From: a phage | Assembly: GCA_026066175.1 (NCBI GenBank) | Contig: GCA_026066175.1_4721.1 | Strand: one strand, 5' to 3' | DNA length: 64,000 nucleotides | In this document: piece by piece, positions 1 through 19,011 of the stretch | How positions within the stretch are numbered: position 1 is the stretch's first letter | Layout: each line of letters opens with the position of its first letter | Position numbers and translations under genes: made by a program | Notes under the pieces: generated by a model | Seen by the model: the letters and a program-made list of their open reading frames with translations, nothing else | What the model was told of the DNA's origin: nothing | Databases searched by the model: none

Positions 1-559
1 AGAACTGATAGAAACTGTGGCATGCAGGAAGCGCCATATCGTCTAAATTGCCTACGTTCCATGCGCTAACGATAATCCGTCGAGAATCAGGATCTTCTTT
101 GAGTTGACGCATCACGTTTGCAATTTGGTCATGGTGTTTAACATACAAGAGATGTTTAACCATACCGTCGTTAACAATACCGCAATACTCATAACCGCGT
201 TGCATCAAAGTACGGGTACGTTCGGTGTCGTGCGGAACAACAACTTTGTAGTCGATCCATTCACGCCATTGTCTACCGTAAATCGGCCCTAGGTTCCCTT
301 CTTTATCAGCCCACTCATTCCAAATACGTACGCCGTTATCCTGAAGATACGCGACGTTCGTATCACCGTTAAGGAACCAGAGTAGTTCGTGAACAACGCT
401 CTTAAGGTGAATCTTCTTGGTGGTGACCAACGGAAACCCTTTCTTTAAGTCAAAATGCATTTGACGTCCGAATACCGAACGTGTGCCGGTACCGGTACGA
501 TCAGCTTTATCGCGACCGCTATCCATGATGTCTTGTAAGAGATCTAAGTACTGTTTCAT
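1..559 (-). CDS. thyA: Thymidylate synthase, N-terminal part; gene runs off the window start
   Basis: Minus-strand translation from ATG at 559..557 reads [31 protein letters not shown]...FPLVTTKK...[12 protein letters not shown]...[14 protein letters not shown]...[11 protein letters not shown], which matches conserved ThyA blocks. About 45 extra residues lie before the DPDSRR block relative to E. coli ThyA as recalled. No stop inside the window. Confidence 0.85.
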
Positions 560-11566: not shown

Positions 11567-11604
11567 CGTACGTACCTCTTTGACTGTATTAATAAATCGT
11601 GTTT

Positions 11605-11645
11605 ACTCACGTAAGTAATATAGCCGTGAAAGGATTTGTATTGGC
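11605..11645 (-). promoter_or_regulatory. Candidate phage early promoter, copy A (minus-strand TTTCACGGCTATATTACTTACGTG)
   Basis: One of four copies of a conserved motif with a TATATTAC core, each 50 to 100 nt upstream of a minus-strand start codon. Confidence 0.4.
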
Positions 11646-11772
11646 ACGTTCGACGTTCATCGTATTTTATGGATTGTCGAATGACGTCATTTTAAGGGAC
11701 ATCCCCGGCCTCCTCCCCAGGAAAGGTGTGGGGAGGAGTTTTTACCAGACTTTTATTAATTCGAGTGCGAGT

Positions 11773-13854
11773 ATGTTAGATAGAATAAATCGCCTAATGA
11801 ACCGGATAACGGTTAAAAATCAAAGCAACAATACCGTGCATGTTGGGGGTATCGATGCCTGGCGTCTTTCGGACGATATCCAGCGAATCTGGGGTACCTC
11901 TCGGTTTATGAAATATATGTTTCGTAACTTCTCTTCCAGCGGTCTTAGCATTCACAACTTCTATCTGCCTGATTTCGTTTATATTCTTGAAACGATCATT
12001 GATGCAAAGAACACCCGCAGCAACAAGCGGATGCTAAAACGCCTTGTTGAAGTCTTGTTAGAAGAAACCTGGCTGCAAAATACCACCATCGAACAGCCAG
12101 CCATTCTTGATAAAGCGCGCATGAAGAAAATGATGACGCTTTCTTTGTTCGATTATCAAGATGAGTATCTCGACATTTATAACCGCAACGTTCCGAAATA
12201 TCGATTAAAAGGCCATGTGTGTGCGATGGGTGCCGGGGCGGGTAAAACAATTACCGCGTTGGCGTTAAGCGCTGCCTTGGGTGTTGACGTCTTCGTGGCA
12301 TGCTGTCCTAAGAACACCATGCGTTCGGCATGGCAATCAGATTTACATAAAGCGCTTGTGGATCCTGCAACCGAATCCGCATTCTGGTCTGATGTGATGC
12401 CCCCAACCCAGTTACAGAAAAGCGATAAATATTACTTCCTGCATTACGAGCAGATGGGATTGTTAAACGAGATCATGCTCAAGCATAAACGCACAGCAAA
12501 ACGTGTGTTGATCGTTGTCGATGAAAGCCATAACTTCAACGATAAGAACAGTCAACGTTCTCAGCGTTTGGTTGATCTGGTACAGACGATGCGTCAAACC
12601 ATGAATGCGGACATACATGTCTTATTTATGTCGGGTACGCCTGTTAAACAGATGGGTTCTGAAATGATCCCATGTTTAGGTTGCATTGACCCGATGTTCC
12701 AAGGCCAGGTGGTTGATAGCTTCAAGTCGATTTACGGTTTAACCAGCAGTCGTGCTAATGATATCTTAAGGCATCGTCTTGGATTCATGATGCATGTCGT
12801 ACCCAAAGAAGCTTACCGTAAGACACGGCCTGAGGTTCAGGACGTATACGTGAAACTGCCTAACGGTAGTGATTACACCATCTCAAGTATCCGTGACGAT
12901 ATGGCGGTGTTTGTGCGTGACCGTGCAAAATACTACAAAGATAACTGGGGGCATTACCGGAAGATTTTCGATGATGCGCTGGATTTCTATCGTCGGACCA
13001 TACGGACGGAAGGTGAGCGTAAAGAACTGTCTCGTTATGAATCCATCGTCGCCCGCTTTCAGAAAGGTTACGATCCTGTCAGGGATAAAGAAGACGCCAT
13101 GTTCTGCAACGTGTTCGAGAAACGAGCGATCATGCCGATTCTTCCTCCCGATTTACGGATTGCGTTCAAAGACGCCAAAAGCGTCATCAAGTACGTCGGA
13201 TTGAAGATTCAAGGGGAAGCCTTGGCAAGGGTTCTTGGCGCAGCGCGCATTCAATGCCACGTTGATATGGTCGAGTATATCGATTTTGAAGGGTATATCA
13301 ACAATGCTGAAGCCAAAGTGCTGATCTTCACGTCATACGTTCAGGTAGTTGAACGCGTTGATAACCTGCTTCGCGATGCGGGCTTCTTACCAGAACCGAT
13401 CTACGGGAAGACCAACAAGAACATTAACCAGATCCTCGCGCGATTACGCGATGATCCTGACAGCGGTCCCGCTATCGCAACCTTTGATAGTTTAGCGGAA
13501 GGGGTTCCTATGTTAATGTGTAACGTCGGCCTTTTCTTAAATAACCCCTGGCGTTCCTCCGATGAGATCCAAGCCATCAGTCGTCTCGACCGTGTTGGTC
13601 AAACCCAACCTGTTCGTATCTATCGTTTCATGCTGGATACTGGCAGCGAAGGTAACGTTTCAACACGAAGCCAAGAGATCATGGAGTTAAGTCGTCAGCT
13701 GGTTGAAGAAATCACAGGTGTTAAATACAATGTGAATAAACAAGCCGACGTTAACCTACAAGAAACGCTGGCTATGGAAGGGTACGATAGATACTTGACG
13801 ATTAATACCCCTGGGTTTGAAATCAAACCGCGTTCCACGTTCTTAGAATGGTAA
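11773..13854 (+). CDS. SNF2/Rad54-family helicase-like ATPase
   Basis: Walker A GAGAGKT, DExH box VVDESHN, motif VI QAISRLDRVGQ. ORF track start 11599 is GTG and reads through an intergenic hairpin and the promoter motif; first ATG after them is 11773. Confidence 0.55.
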   Translation: MLDRINRLMNRITVKNQSNNTVHVGGIDAWRLSDDIQRIWGTSRFMKYMFRNFSSSGLSIHNFYLPDFVYILETIIDAKNTRSNKRMLKRLVEVLLEETWLQNTTIEQPAILDKARMKKMMTLSLFDYQDEYLDIYNRNVPKYRLKGHVCAMGAGAGKTITALALSAALGVDVFVACCPKNTMRSAWQSDLHKALVDPATESAFWSDVMPPTQLQKSDKYYFLHYEQMGLLNEIMLKHKRTAKRVLIVVDESHNFNDKNSQRSQRLVDLVQTMRQTMNADIHVLFMSGTPVKQMGSEMIPCLGCIDPMFQGQVVDSFKSIYGLTSSRANDILRHRLGFMMHVVPKEAYRKTRPEVQDVYVKLPNGSDYTISSIRDDMAVFVRDRAKYYKDNWGHYRKIFDDALDFYRRTIRTEGERKELSRYESIVARFQKGYDPVRDKEDAMFCNVFEKRAIMPILPPDLRIAFKDAKSVIKYVGLKIQGEALARVLGAARIQCHVDMVEYIDFEGYINNAEAKVLIFTSYVQVVERVDNLLRDAGFLPEPIYGKTNKNINQILARLRDDPDSGPAIATFDSLAEGVPMLMCNVGLFLNNPWRSSDEIQAISRLDRVGQTQPVRIYRFMLDTGSEGNVSTRSQEIMELSRQLVEEITGVKYNVNKQADVNLQETLAMEGYDRYLTINTPGFEIKPRSTFLEW

Positions 13855-13860
13855 TTAAGA

Positions 13861-13882
13861 AGCTCTGCCCGAAGGCAGAGCT
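13861..13882. terminator. Hairpin (agctctgcc / ggcagagct) followed by T-tract
   Basis: Immediately downstream of the stop of the plus-strand helicase gene. Confidence 0.5.
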
Positions 13883-13948
13883 TTATGCCGGATTTACCAC
13901 GAAATCGTATGACGCGATATGCGTCTTTAATTAAAGGAAAAGCGCGAA

Positions 13949-15403
13949 ATGAAAATCAAACAAAGCTGGAAAGACGAATTACTTGCATTAGTTAACAGCA
14001 AAAACAGTTTACAACTGACATTAGACGACGTAAAGTTTGAATTAACCGAACCGGTAAGCGAAGTGCCCGGAACGGTCGTTGTTACAATCAAACCGAACGA
14101 TAATAGTCGCTACTTTAACGAGCAGTCTCTGACCTACGTCCGTCGAGACATTGCTAAAAACTTCACCGGGATTCCGTTACGGGTTATCGTTAAGCAAGAT
14201 ACCGCTGTAAGGGATATCATCAATACGATTGCTGAACGTTACGGATTGGTATTTGACACAACCGTCGACTTCCTCGAATCAGAGCTGAATAAACAAATTA
14301 CTTTCGCAGACACCGGTATTAAAGACGTTACTGTTCCGGTTGCAAACACGTCTTATGTTTGGGCTGGTAATCTTCAGTTCAATATTGCGAACGATACGTT
14401 AAGCTTGATTACTATCATCAAGAAAACCAATCTTACGAATCTGGTTTATCTGGATGGTGTTGAAGCTGACACATCGGGGTCGTTACTGTTAGCCACCACA
14501 GCACTTGTTAACGATAGCGTAAATAAGCCGATGGTTGAAAACGAAGATATCGTCGATGAATTCTACAACGTTCTTAATGCTCTAGCCAAATATGGTGACA
14601 TAACTGGCGATGAATTAAATGCCGCCTTACATGCGTACGATGAAGCAGAAAACAGGAATAAAACCACGGTAATAACTCTTGGTGATATCCAGTGTGTTGC
14701 AACAGAAAAAGACGATTGGGAAATTGGACGTTTACGCGGTCAGATGGTTCTCGCGCTCAAATCCGACAAACAACCTGAGCGCGAGAACACGTTAAGGTTG
14801 TTTACGAATGGCGGTGACGTCTCACTAACGTTAAACACAATGAAAGATATCAGTATCGATTGGGGTGATGGGAATAAAGTAACGTTGGATGCTGAAGAAA
14901 GATACGCGCACCACACATACGCCGACAATAACCAGTACCAAATCGAAATTGTGTCTCGTACGGACCCAGATGTGCTGCGACCAAATTATATTTCTGGGAG
15001 TGAGATAACCGAAGTAATTCACTGGGCTACTACTTCAACAATAGCTCTGAATTTTGTTGGATGCGATAATTTAGCGACTGTTCCAGATGAGATCCCAACT
15101 TCGTGGACAACGTTGGACAGCATGTTTGAAAGTTGTACGAATTTGAATGATCCGTCTATCTCTAACTGGAATACAAGTAACATCACATCAATGAATGGTA
15201 TGTTCGGCGGATGCACTAAATTTAACCAACCTTTAGCTGCCTGGGATGTCAGCTCAGTAACTGACATTGGTGGTATGTTTGTCGGATGTGACAGTTTTAA
15301 CCAAGATTTAAGTGGGTGGCGATTACCGTCAGGAGTAAACCACACCAATTACGATGATGGTGCTTTCTCGTGGCAGACGGAACATAAACCGACATTCCAG
15401 TAA
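13949..15403 (+). CDS. Protein with C-terminal DUF285/BspA-like repeats
   Basis: Repeated units TSMFESCTNLN...WNTSNITSMNGMFGGCTKFNQPL..WDVSSVTDIGGMFVGCDSFNQDLSGW; ATG preceded by AAAGGAAAAG. Confidence 0.5.
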   Translation: MKIKQSWKDELLALVNSKNSLQLTLDDVKFELTEPVSEVPGTVVVTIKPNDNSRYFNEQSLTYVRRDIAKNFTGIPLRVIVKQDTAVRDIINTIAERYGLVFDTTVDFLESELNKQITFADTGIKDVTVPVANTSYVWAGNLQFNIANDTLSLITIIKKTNLTNLVYLDGVEADTSGSLLLATTALVNDSVNKPMVENEDIVDEFYNVLNALAKYGDITGDELNAALHAYDEAENRNKTTVITLGDIQCVATEKDDWEIGRLRGQMVLALKSDKQPERENTLRLFTNGGDVSLTLNTMKDISIDWGDGNKVTLDAEERYAHHTYADNNQYQIEIVSRTDPDVLRPNYISGSEITEVIHWATTSTIALNFVGCDNLATVPDEIPTSWTTLDSMFESCTNLNDPSISNWNTSNITSMNGMFGGCTKFNQPLAAWDVSSVTDIGGMFVGCDSFNQDLSGWRLPSGVNHTNYDDGAFSWQTEHKPTFQ

Positions 15404-15422
15404 AAAAAAATAGTTAGCATAA

Positions 15423-15456
15423 CTTCCTCCCTACCCATAACGGGCGGGGAGGAAGG
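15423..15456. terminator. GC-rich hairpin (cttcctccc / ggggaggaagg), bidirectional position
   Basis: Lies between the convergent genes 13949..15403 (+) and 15473..15811 (-). Confidence 0.5.
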
Positions 15457-15472
15457 TTTATGTGGTTATGAC

Positions 15473-15811
15473 TTAGAACCAGAGTTCTTTCATGAAGTAG
15501 GCTTCCATATCGTAAATAAGCCACTCATCTGGGATTTCTAAAGGATCGTCTTCGGTTAAGGTGAGCATGTGCAGGGCGAACGCACGCTTAATATCTTCCA
15601 ACAGCTTATCATCACCGTAACCTTCGGGTAGTTTACGGTCAACCAGCTGGGTTTGTTTATAGACATCGCGGAACGCTTCAGGATTATGTTTATCCATCGG
15701 GAATTGTTCAGCAGCCTGAACCATCGAAAGCGTCCAGCTTACAACATTGTAACGCTCACCGTTAATTTCACTGAACTTATCATCGATTAAACAGATTTGT
15801 TGTATATTCAT
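15473..15811 (-). CDS. Hypothetical protein (112 aa)
   Basis: ORF on the gene strand. Confidence 0.4.
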   Translation of the reverse strand: MNIQQICLIDDKFSEINGERYNVVSWTLSMVQAAEQFPMDKHNPEAFRDVYKQTQLVDRKLPEGYGDDKLLEDIKRAFALHMLTLTEDDPLEIPDEWLIYDMEAYFMKELWF

Positions 15812-16749: not shown

Positions 16750-19011
16750 TTACAATTCGAAATCTTCATCGATAACGCGTTGGGTTAGCACCTTGTCGCT
16801 GAAGAACTCCACCTTACGTTGATGGTATTTCCGATGTGCTTCAATCGACGTACACACCAGATACCAGAACGTGGGTGTCATACCCTCGAACTTCCCTTTC
16901 AGCTGACGTAGTCGACCTAACACCTGAATGTTACCAGTTCTCGACCCCATCGCTAACGTCATGAACGTCATCACCAAGTCAGGAAGATCGATTCCTGTAC
17001 CAGCCGATTTTACCGTTGTCACACTGATATCATTATCCAGTAACACCATGAAATCTTCTTCAGCGGTATAAGGACCTATCTCCAACTCAGGGATACGTTC
17101 ACTTAAGTAATGCGATAACGACTTGCACATATCAACGGTTGCACAATACACCAACATCTTCATGCCTTCCTGATATTGGTTCATGAAACCTTTGATAATA
17201 ACCGTATAGATAAAGTTGAAATAGGCGAGTTTGAGTTGCTTATTCTTCATGATAGACTGTTCGAATACCGTGTGAGAATAAGAACCTCCAAAGCCTTTGT
17301 ATCGGACTTTATCCGTACTGCGTAGTCGATACGTCACCGCATTTACCGCGATGTATTTCTTGTATTCACATTTCGCATAACGTGCTTCTTTCGGATACAT
17401 CAAATACAGCATCCGCTCGATGAACGGATCGTCAGACACCGCCGTTGCCGACAGATAAATGATTTCCGGAATATTCGCGTAACACTTCACTTTGAACAAG
17501 AAATGCAGAGCTTCGTGACATTCATCGTGGATTAACAATCCAATGCCTGTTTTCTCCCAGAACTCGACTGGATGGAAAACATAAGGTGCGACACAGTTGT
17601 TCTTTTCATAATCGGTTATATAACGCTGAAACATGTTCAGTGAGAATAACGCAATTTTGAAATCCAACTCACCTTGTTCTACCAACGTCTGAAATTCCAA
17701 CATGCTGTAACGAGGAATGTCGGGATGCGGTGGGTCAGACTGGGCTGTACCACGTATCTCGATAACATCACCTGGTTCCATACCGAAGAAACTTAGCAGT
17801 GAGCTACGCCATCCAGGCATGTACCTCGGTGACAGAATGATGCCCGTCCGTACACCACGTCGGAAGGTGATCTCCTGCGACATTGCGGTGTTGTGCGTGA
17901 CGATATGGTCTTTAATAACATAAAGGCTTTCGTCGTTGTCCACCGTGATGCAACGTGCCTTCGCTTTCACCGTCGGCACGATGCCGCCAATCGCTAAACC
18001 AGGAAGCGTGTTAACGGGAAGATCATCTGGAATCTCAATGCCGTCAGGAATAAGCTTAAGCAAATCGGAATGGTAAATTAATGTCTCCATCGTGTAACTA
18101 TTGATGGGGCATTTATACGCGATTCCCCCTAACCGATAAGCCAACTCCCAGACCTCGGTCATTATCTGCGAATCGGTGGTTCTGACCGCAAGGTGAGCCC
18201 ACCCTTCTTCAACACGCAGCACGCAACGATCTTTGATGAGTTCTCTGAAACGATCAAGACCCACGAGTTCTTTCGGTTCGTAAAGTCGGATTCTTACCGG
18301 ACGAGATCGTGACGATCTGTCATTAAGACGTTCCATGATTTCACTCGTGCTGAGCACCTTGTCAGGATCCGTGCATTGCCAGAGATGATCACCACACGCT
18401 TCAACCATTCGTCCATCTTCAAAGAAGACAGCGTAAAGCTGAATATCGTCATGATCAAAGATAGCAGTTACGTTCGTCGGTAAACCATCCGCGCCGATGA
18501 CCTCATCACCCACCTGGAGCTCACCAATCGGCTTCCAACCGCTTGGAACCTTAACGGGTGTATGGAGAGCCAATGCTTTCCCAGACCCCGTGCCTGCGGT
18601 GTTTAGGCTCATTCTGAAAGGGGTATCCTTACCCCCATCCATGTACTCCAACCATTCTTGCTGATCTTCACGCCACGGAAACTTCCAGTTCTTCACAAAC
18701 TCCACTTCCTTACCTGGAACCGGATCGTGGTAAACGATTTCCAACCACTCCTTTCGAATTCCTCGAGAAAAGATAAAATCCAAAAACGACTTCAGCTGTT
18801 CACGAAGTAAGTAGACCTCGCTATAATCGCTTCTTGCTGCGGCGTAGGTGTTGATGGTATCGGTGACCATTCTCCGTGTACGAGGGTCGCGTCGTTTCCG
18901 TAGATGCAAACAACGGTCTCGAAGGTAATGGCCAATCAAATGGGCAAATCGAAGTCCGTATCCGCTCAGCTTCATGCCATGCGAGAAGACGTCGATACGA
19001 GCTAACTTCAT
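16750..19011 (-). CDS. DExH-box helicase with an intein-like insertion in the Walker A motif
   Basis: GTGSGK is followed by a 229-residue insert ending VTHN, then T; removing the insert gives GTGSGKT. Downstream DExH box LLIHDECHEAL. Confidence 0.55.
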   Translation of the reverse strand: MKLARIDVFSHGMKLSGYGLRFAHLIGHYLRDRCLHLRKRRDPRTRRMVTDTINTYAAARSDYSEVYLLREQLKSFLDFIFSRGIRKEWLEIVYHDPVPGKEVEFVKNWKFPWREDQQEWLEYMDGGKDTPFRMSLNTAGTGSGKALALHTPVKVPSGWKPIGELQVGDEVIGADGLPTNVTAIFDHDDIQLYAVFFEDGRMVEACGDHLWQCTDPDKVLSTSEIMERLNDRSSRSRPVRIRLYEPKELVGLDRFRELIKDRCVLRVEEGWAHLAVRTTDSQIMTEVWELAYRLGGIAYKCPINSYTMETLIYHSDLLKLIPDGIEIPDDLPVNTLPGLAIGGIVPTVKAKARCITVDNDESLYVIKDHIVTHNTAMSQEITFRRGVRTGIILSPRYMPGWRSSLLSFFGMEPGDVIEIRGTAQSDPPHPDIPRYSMLEFQTLVEQGELDFKIALFSLNMFQRYITDYEKNNCVAPYVFHPVEFWEKTGIGLLIHDECHEALHFLFKVKCYANIPEIIYLSATAVSDDPFIERMLYLMYPKEARYAKCEYKKYIAVNAVTYRLRSTDKVRYKGFGGSYSHTVFEQSIMKNKQLKLAYFNFIYTVIIKGFMNQYQEGMKMLVYCATVDMCKSLSHYLSERIPELEIGPYTAEEDFMVLLDNDISVTTVKSAGTGIDLPDLVMTFMTLAMGSRTGNIQVLGRLRQLKGKFEGMTPTFWYLVCTSIEAHRKYHQRKVEFFSDKVLTQRVIDEDFEL
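17890..18576 (-). other. Putative intein (229 codons, Ala1 ... His-Asn, +1 Thr)
   Basis: Hint-like blocks GELQVGDEVIGADG near the N-terminus and CITVDNDESLYVIKDHIVTHN at the C-terminus; sits exactly inside the P-loop. Confidence 0.5.

Follow-up and report, generated by a model that had tools for sequence, protein, structure and literature searches.

A probable DUF7941 fibre subunit with an apparently exchangeable leucine-rich repeat tip in a Goslar-like phage

The window analysed here is a stretch of 64,000 nucleotides from a phage (GenBank assembly GCA_026066175.1, contig GCA_026066175.1_4721.1), and at positions 13949–15403 it carries an open reading frame (ORF) whose product ends in tandem repeats of the DUF285 type. 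The question raised by this locus is what such repeats do in a phage protein. The original prediction, made from the sequence, had placed the ORF exactly, on the plus strand and with 484 amino acids (aa), and had offered for its repeats either a virion surface or receptor-binding module or a domain acquired from a host. The answer proposed here, which we regard as probable rather than certain, is that the protein is a subunit of baseplate-anchored DUF7941 fibres in a Goslar-like chimallivirus, with its own exchangeable, ligand-binding leucine-rich repeat (LRR) tip.

It is because of its N-terminal DUF7941 domain that the protein is placed in the virion. Residues 4–187 match DUF7941 (PF25613; profile positions 5–193 of 276, E = 2e-25, 90.3 bits against a cutoff of 27), and the N-terminal module also matches phrog_1037 and phrog_2935, both of which are annotated as "virion structural protein". 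This module is 34% identical to residues 7–195 of Goslar gp22 (E = 3e-27), and the modelled N-terminal domain shares the fold of the N-terminal domain of phiKZ gp127 (PDB 9XQD chain '0'). The DUF7941 domain had not been part of the original prediction.

The ortholog in Goslar is gp161 (YP_009820846.1, HOV27_gp161), with 60.8% aa identity over the full length and synteny with gp160–gp164. Goslar is a nucleus-forming jumbo phage of Escherichia coli, listed under Chimalliviridae, and the window is collinear with Goslar gp157–165 at approximately 85–88% nucleotide identity; by this collinearity the gene is encoded by a chimallivirus genome, as expected of the DUF7941 family. The Goslar protein has been described as one of ten DUF7941 proteins of that phage, with a DUF7941 module followed by an LRR (Basu et al., bioRxiv 10.64898/2026.04.21.720040). 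In CsCl-purified Goslar virions it was detected by mass spectrometry with 27 peptides and 53.8% coverage (Basu et al., Table S4), including one peptide from the C-terminal LRR region, and was estimated at approximately 111 (74–174) copies per virion. The virion proteomics that had been suggested as a check is therefore already on record, for the ortholog and not for this allele. In the same study purified gp22 assembled into filaments seen by negative-stain electron microscopy (EM), head-to-tail oligomers were predicted by AlphaFold 3 for other DUF7941 proteins, and a baseplate-anchored, chimallivirus-specific "DUF7941 fibre cloud" was proposed to serve host recognition. The phiKZ protein gp127 lies in the outer peripheral baseplate, at the end of the gp139 band in each lobe of the baseplate star (phiKZ atlas, PMC13250141).

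The C-terminal tandem repeats are real and comprise approximately four units of 25 or 26 residues. Comparison of residues 356–470 with themselves gave 19 identities at an offset of 25 and 14 at an offset of 26; in 1000 shuffles the best offset averaged 11.7 identities (standard deviation 1.5), and the maximum, 18, falls short of the count at offset 25. The top-scoring 22-residue pair, WNTSNITSMNGMFGGCTKFNQP / WDVSSVTDIGGMFVGCDSFNQD, reaches 70 BLOSUM62 units. The profile search suggested with the original prediction bears this out, as PF03382 (DUF285) matches residues 387–466 (E = 2.6e-25, 88.9 bits, gathering cutoff 25) and TIGR02167, the 26-residue PARCEL repeat, matches in two stretches (50.9 bits, cutoff 30). 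Of the label "DUF285/BspA-like", the first half stands. The second is loose, the likeness to PDB 4fs7 and 6mlx being at the level of the fold only, with no match in the Pfam scan of the protein to PF13306 (LRR_5, the BspA/TpLRR family proper) at E ≤ 1. NF045896 (the Mbov_0838 family, a class of bacterial surface lipoproteins and adhesins) gave 62 bits, far under its cutoff of 500, and a phmmer search of the 484-aa protein against PDB chains found nothing significant (best E-value 0.25). The modelled DUF285 part has an LRR-type solenoid fold, for which 4fs7 and 6mlx are the matches, and the scaffold residues F393, W407, F419, W432 and W457 are at least 90% conserved over 45 homologs. Within the LRR these invariant scaffold residues interleave with highly variable positions.

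The AlphaFold2 model consists of an alpha/beta domain (1–160), a stretch of low confidence (161–178), helices (179–232), a beta-sandwich (239–340) and the LRR (345–484). In the linker the predicted local distance difference test score (pLDDT) is below 50 at residues 168–175, while its sequence is conserved and lines up well with the gp22 linker in the pattern IIK.TNL.NL.Y.D.G...TS..LL. Going by the AlphaFold 3 head-to-tail model of Basu et al., residues 161–185 are a candidate for a strand that docks onto the N-terminal domain of the next protomer. At the N-terminus, MKIKQSWKDELLALVNSKNS, neither a hydrophobic signal nor a lipobox can be read from the 484-aa sequence, and the lack of such a signal-like segment is consistent with assembly in the cytoplasm. 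In the beta-sandwich a D-W-G-D-G motif (14860..14874, residues 304–308) is kept in all allele classes described below and in 584-aa paralogs, amid highly variable surroundings; its D, G, D and G are invariant and its W is at least 90% conserved. The motif recalls the signature of the PKD domain, for which the Pfam match is below threshold, and it may be a structural or metal-binding turn.

Between its two ends the gene reads as a two-part mosaic of a conserved anchor and a variable cassette, a division that is new in the present analysis. Nucleotide identity to Goslar is 88–94% over 13992 to approximately 14441, falls to approximately 50% from approximately 14500 (near residue 185) to 15400, and is back at 84–95% directly past the stop codon. 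In an alignment of 57 orthologous sequences, made up of the present protein, Goslar gp161 and 55 database clusters, pairwise aa identity is 85–100% (median 96%) over residues 1–185 and 37–100% (median 73%) over residues 186–484. Mean column entropy is 0.11 bits in the N-terminal domain, 0.18 in the linker, 0.67 in the helices, 0.94 in the beta-sandwich and 0.80 in the LRR. At 70% identity the cassettes form five allele classes, and the class in the window is common only to P0001–P0003. Modular receptor-binding proteins are marked by a conserved anchor that carries a distal domain which is hypervariable and exchanged horizontally, and this arrangement is present here.

Such a pattern could have come about by fast evolution alone. 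In the comparison of flanks and cassettes from six genomes, however, relatedness by cassette and relatedness by backbone contradict each other. The flanks in the window have 85–89% nucleotide identity to those of all the other genomes compared, and yet its cassette matches that of L003 (GCA_025812035.1) at 95% identity, with flanks at 85–86%, and that of L005 at 89%. The reverse is seen between L006 and Goslar, where the upstream flank is 96% and the cassette only 53% identical; L003 and L005, in turn, have flanks at 98–99% and cassettes at 92%. Between the window and L003 the synonymous divergence (dS) is 1.51 in the upstream helicase gene, 0.19 both in residues 1–185 and in residues 186–340 of the target gene, 0.06 in residues 341–484, and 0.41 and 0.85 in the downstream orf112 and orf297. 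Between allele classes the synonymous sites of the cassette are saturated. As judged from these sequence comparisons, the synonymous divergence confirms that cassettes have apparently been exchanged by recombination, beyond what fast evolution alone would give.

The ratio of nonsynonymous to synonymous divergence (dN/dS) is 0.03–0.17 in the neighbouring genes and 0.09–0.10 in the N-terminal module, and it is 0.28–0.56 for the cassette in recent comparisons. Against L005 the values are 0.56 for the cassette and 0.09 for the N-terminal module, with 70 nonsynonymous and 32 synonymous changes in the former and 8 and 24 in the latter (Fisher p = 2e-5). This shows a cassette that appears to be under relaxed or diversifying selection at some of its sites, with positive selection not proven. 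In every genome pair dS is 0.19–0.66 in the N-terminal module (13949..14503), 0.20–0.42 in the 112-aa ORF downstream (15473..15811) and 0.7–1.9 in the genes further out. The N-terminal module and the 112-aa ORF look as if they had been repeatedly homogenised, as would be expected of recombination arms around a cassette.

Taken as a mechanism, the proposed fibre subunit would work as follows. The DUF7941 domain (160 residues) and the conserved disordered linker (161–185) would insert the protein into head-to-tail DUF7941 filaments or, alternatively, attach it directly to the outer peripheral baseplate. Residues 186–484, with their two helices, DWGDG beta-sandwich and four-unit DUF285/PARCEL LRR solenoid, would point outward and bind a strain-variable structure of the bacterial surface, most plausibly lipopolysaccharide (LPS), another envelope glycan or a surface protein, in an early and probably reversible contact between virion and host. 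Homologous recombination in the N-terminal module and the downstream flank would trade whole cassettes between lineages and alter specificity; a nearly invariant N-terminal module in front of the binding part would make such swapping of whole cassettes possible. With the ortholog detected in virions, the gp127-like fold, and the mosaic of anchor and tip with its cassette exchange, the virion surface or receptor-binding module is the better supported of the two options first offered for the repeats.

The family to which the protein belongs was described in 2026, and the protein adds to it a new allele-class member and not a new kind. It agrees with Goslar gp161 in genomic position, in length (484 against 483 aa), in its DUF7941 and LRR architecture and in an N-terminal module that is 96% identical, but its residues 186–340 are only 32% and its residues 341–484 only 47% identical, and it therefore belongs to a different allele class. 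Goslar gp22 and gp23 and phiKZ gp126 and gp127 are high-copy building blocks (approximately 580 and 2140 copies per virion) that consist of the DUF7941 module alone, made up of an N-terminal domain, a linker and, in some cases, a small C-terminal domain; in the present protein a 300-residue extension of helices, beta-sandwich and LRR replaces that C-terminal domain. The 584-aa paralog has the same two-family architecture, the invariant DWGDG and the LRR scaffold residues. It is 43–47% identical, 100 residues longer and part of a tail-fibre cluster, where its neighbours are a 175-aa DUF7941 gene and a tail-fibre gene of 967 aa, whereas the target gene stands isolated between terminator-like hairpins. 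In Basu et al. this paralog (the P0056–P0108 class) probably corresponds to gp92. Goslar has its other DUF7941 genes elsewhere in the genome, and a tblastn search of the protein against all 64 kb of the window gave only the gene itself.

With the bacterial DUF285/PARCEL and BspA/TpLRR surface proteins of Mycoplasma, Listeria and Bacteroides (PDB 4fs7, 6mlx) the protein shares the repeat family and the LRR solenoid fold; unlike these, it has no signal peptide or lipobox, has approximately four repeats and not dozens, and is fused to a phage virion module. It resembles the classical modular receptor-binding proteins, such as T4-like or T7-like tail fibres and tailspikes, in its conserved anchor, its hypervariable tip, a breakpoint at a domain boundary and the discord between cassette and backbone. 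The phage receptor-binding proteins known so far are as a rule trimers, built as beta-helices or fibres, whereas this one is predicted to carry an LRR solenoid on a polymerising subunit. It is conceivable, and we put this forward tentatively, as a proposition more open to doubt than the fibre subunit itself, that residues 186–484 are a receptor-binding module of a kind uncharacterised in phages, a short PARCEL/LRR solenoid behind a DWGDG beta-sandwich that would be displayed in approximately a hundred copies on polymeric DUF7941 filaments and not on a trimeric fibre, and traded as a host-range cassette. A full-text search gave no paper in which leucine-rich repeats, a receptor-binding protein, a jumbo phage and a tail fiber are named together.

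Several points weigh against a fibre subunit with a receptor-binding tip. The target gene lies among replication and transcription genes, outside any tail gene cluster. Filament formation has been shown for gp22 only (Basu et al.), and Goslar also has conventional tail fibres. In genome-wide screens the LPS outer core (GluII) came out as the E. coli K-12 receptor of Goslar, whose receptor-binding protein is listed as unknown. No confident fold match was found for the beta-sandwich, and a carbohydrate-binding role for it is not established. No positive selection across the whole gene is claimed, as dN/dS is raised and yet below 1 across the whole cassette. In one natural lineage (P0067/P0073, 16 member sequences), codon 277 has changed from CAA to an in-frame TAA; at L008 3001..4452 the ortholog is split into a 276-aa DUF7941 ORF and a 193-aa DUF285 ORF, with the remaining frame intact. 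In this lineage the LRR tip may be dispensable, or the change may be a recent knockout. Programmed read-through was considered for the 276-aa variants and rejected: P0067 and P0073 are 97.5% identical and share the single CAA-to-TAA change in one lineage, as for a simple nonsense mutation.

The place of the protein in the particle is also at issue, given that gp161 is absent from the cryo-EM model of Goslar, that its external position is inferred, and that mass spectrometry is blind to the difference between external proteins and internal or injected ones. The protein might then be injected, its LRR binding a cytoplasmic or envelope protein of the host after ejection, in the manner of the effectors YopM, IpaH and SspH1. 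This is unlikely, since the N-terminal module has its homologs, by sequence and by fold, in gp22, of the external filaments, and in phiKZ gp127, of the outer peripheral baseplate; the paralog is located in a tail-fibre cluster, and the nearest LRR fold is that of a bacterial cell-surface protein of the BspA type and of no effector.

That same fold, nearest to the surface LRR proteins of gut Bacteroides, would also suit an external adhesin directed at the environment, such as gut mucus, extracellular matrix proteins or biofilm polysaccharide, as has been proposed for immunoglobulin-like (Ig-like) capsid decorations. Among oral and gut bacteria, LRR proteins of the BspA type attach to matrix proteins of the host, Goslar was isolated from duck dung, and the persistence of the nonsense lineage suggests a tip that is not essential for infection. 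We nevertheless consider this improbable too, because cassette exchange and raised dN/dS fit a strain-variable bacterial target better than conserved animal or matrix ligands.

The remaining question is where the DUF285 part came from. Of 50,697 phage records, 32 had matches in a tblastn search (E ≤ 1e-5). In some of these only the DUF7941 N-terminal module is matched, and nearly all matches to the DUF285 part come from myoviruses of more than 140 kb. At the three loci examined, in phages Tr1, pEt-SU and LAh10, the DUF285 genes adjoin tail-assembly, virion-structural and baseplate genes. The view that such repeats are uncommon in phage proteins holds only in part. Homologs labelled as E. coli, Salmonella or Shigella are on contigs of 235–244 kb, the size of a phage genome, and the sole named homolog outside the Goslar-like phage group is from Candidatus Saccharibacteria. 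The fusion of DUF7941 and DUF285 is common to all Goslar-like genomes sampled and to the 584-aa paralog. The suggestion of a host-acquired domain is thus left without support, and a host origin of the DUF285 part was rejected, there being no enterobacterial homologs besides those on contigs of phage-genome size. It is very improbable that the DUF285 part was recently acquired from a host or is a passenger, without any role in the virion and in an accessory "moron" or decaying gene, even though DUF285 is by its Pfam and NCBIfam family names mainly a domain of bacterial surface proteins, the G+C content of the gene is slightly lower (0.427 against approximately 0.46) and a natural nonsense variant exists, because the fusion is intact and of full length in the 55 ortholog clusters compared and in the paralog class, dN/dS is below 1, as under purifying selection, Enterobacteriaceae homologs were seen on phage-sized contigs only, and the C-terminal LRR peptide of gp161 in purified virions largely refutes it.

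Table 1. Positions of the target gene, its parts and the bordering hairpins in the 64,000-nucleotide window.
Feature	Residues	Position	Strand	Basis
Coding sequence, DUF7941 + DUF285 protein (probable virion fibre protein), 484 aa + stop	1–484	13949..15403	+	ORF list, Goslar synteny, Pfam
DUF7941 N-terminal globular domain; conserved, putative anchor/polymerisation module	1–160	13949..14428	+	
Linker, predicted disordered, sequence conserved	161–185	14429..14503	+	pLDDT, entropy
Variable, apparently exchangeable cassette	186–484	14504..15400	+	identity drop, allele classes, dS, dN/dS
Helical segment (helices 202–214 and 220–232)	186–235	14504..14653	+	AlphaFold2 models
Beta-sandwich domain with D-W-G-D-G at 304–308	236–345	14654..14983	+	
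LRR solenoid of DUF285/PARCEL repeats, ending in C-terminal cap	346–484	14984..15400	+	
DUF285 repeat units	366–468	15044–15352	+	
Repeat U0, degenerate	366–391			read from sequence
Repeat U1, canonical	392–417			read from sequence
Repeat U2, canonical	418–442			read from sequence
Repeat U3, canonical	443–468			read from sequence
Cap after repeats	469–484			read from sequence
Terminator-like hairpin after upstream SNF2-type helicase gene		13860..13883	+	-19 kcal/mol, z -3.9
Strong hairpin between target gene and convergent minus-strand genes		15417..15461	both	fold energy

The target gene occupies the same genomic slot as gp161 in Goslar, between an SNF2-type helicase gene and the convergent gp162–164 block. 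A terminator is annotated in Goslar at the position matching the upstream hairpin (Table 1), which separates the helicase gene from the target gene. The downstream hairpin, with -28.4 kcal/mol (z -5.3) on the plus strand and -26.7 kcal/mol (z -5.7) on the minus strand, the latter with a U-run shortly downstream, is likely to be a bidirectional terminator. As strong hairpins bracket the gene and the downstream genes are convergent, it looks like a stand-alone transcription unit. Chimalliviruses transcribe with their own RNA polymerases, and the sigma-70 promoters around the gene (3 seen, 3.9 expected) are uninformative.

The ORF of the SNF2-type helicase (11599..13854) has a GTG start and 751 aa in the window, against 693 aa for Goslar gp160 and the orthologs in L005–L007 and 648 aa for that in L003. 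Over 11599–11748 the nucleotide identity to Goslar is close to zero, and the true start is probably an internal codon.

A second helicase ORF (16750..19011) carries, relative to Goslar gp164, an insertion of 229 aa (17890..18576, minus strand) inside its Walker A motif, between GTGSGK and T. The exteins are approximately 99% identical, and the insertion starts with ALALHTPV and ends with IVTHN, followed by Thr. The insertion has no Pfam match, and a Pfam scan of the whole 753-aa helicase and of two small neighbouring ORFs likewise gave none; by its termini it looks like a mini-intein with Ala at position 1. The same 753-aa form of the helicase is present in L003 and L005–L007. In L008 (5822..6831) the product of this gene is recorded as 876 residues, runs off the end of the locus and has a weak match to LAGLIDADG_3, which suggests that the site of the mini version in the window is occupied there by an intein of full size, complete with homing endonuclease.

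Nucleus-forming jumbo phages are attractive for therapy, as their replicating genome is inside a protein shell and shielded from host defences that target DNA, and their recognition of the host is poorly known; this locus offers a concrete candidate for a receptor-binding protein. What the present analysis adds is the precise boundary of the mosaic and the evidence for cassette exchange. The latter is population-genetic evidence that residues 186–484 are the fast-evolving and, it appears, horizontally exchanged part of a protein whose ortholog has already been detected in virions, and it lends independent, sequence-based support to DUF7941 fibres acting in host recognition. The exchange boundaries, at approximately nucleotide 14500 and at the stop codon, are precise enough to provide ready-made junctions for cassette swaps. 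If residues 186–484 are indeed a receptor module, such swaps should re-target nucleus-forming jumbo phages.

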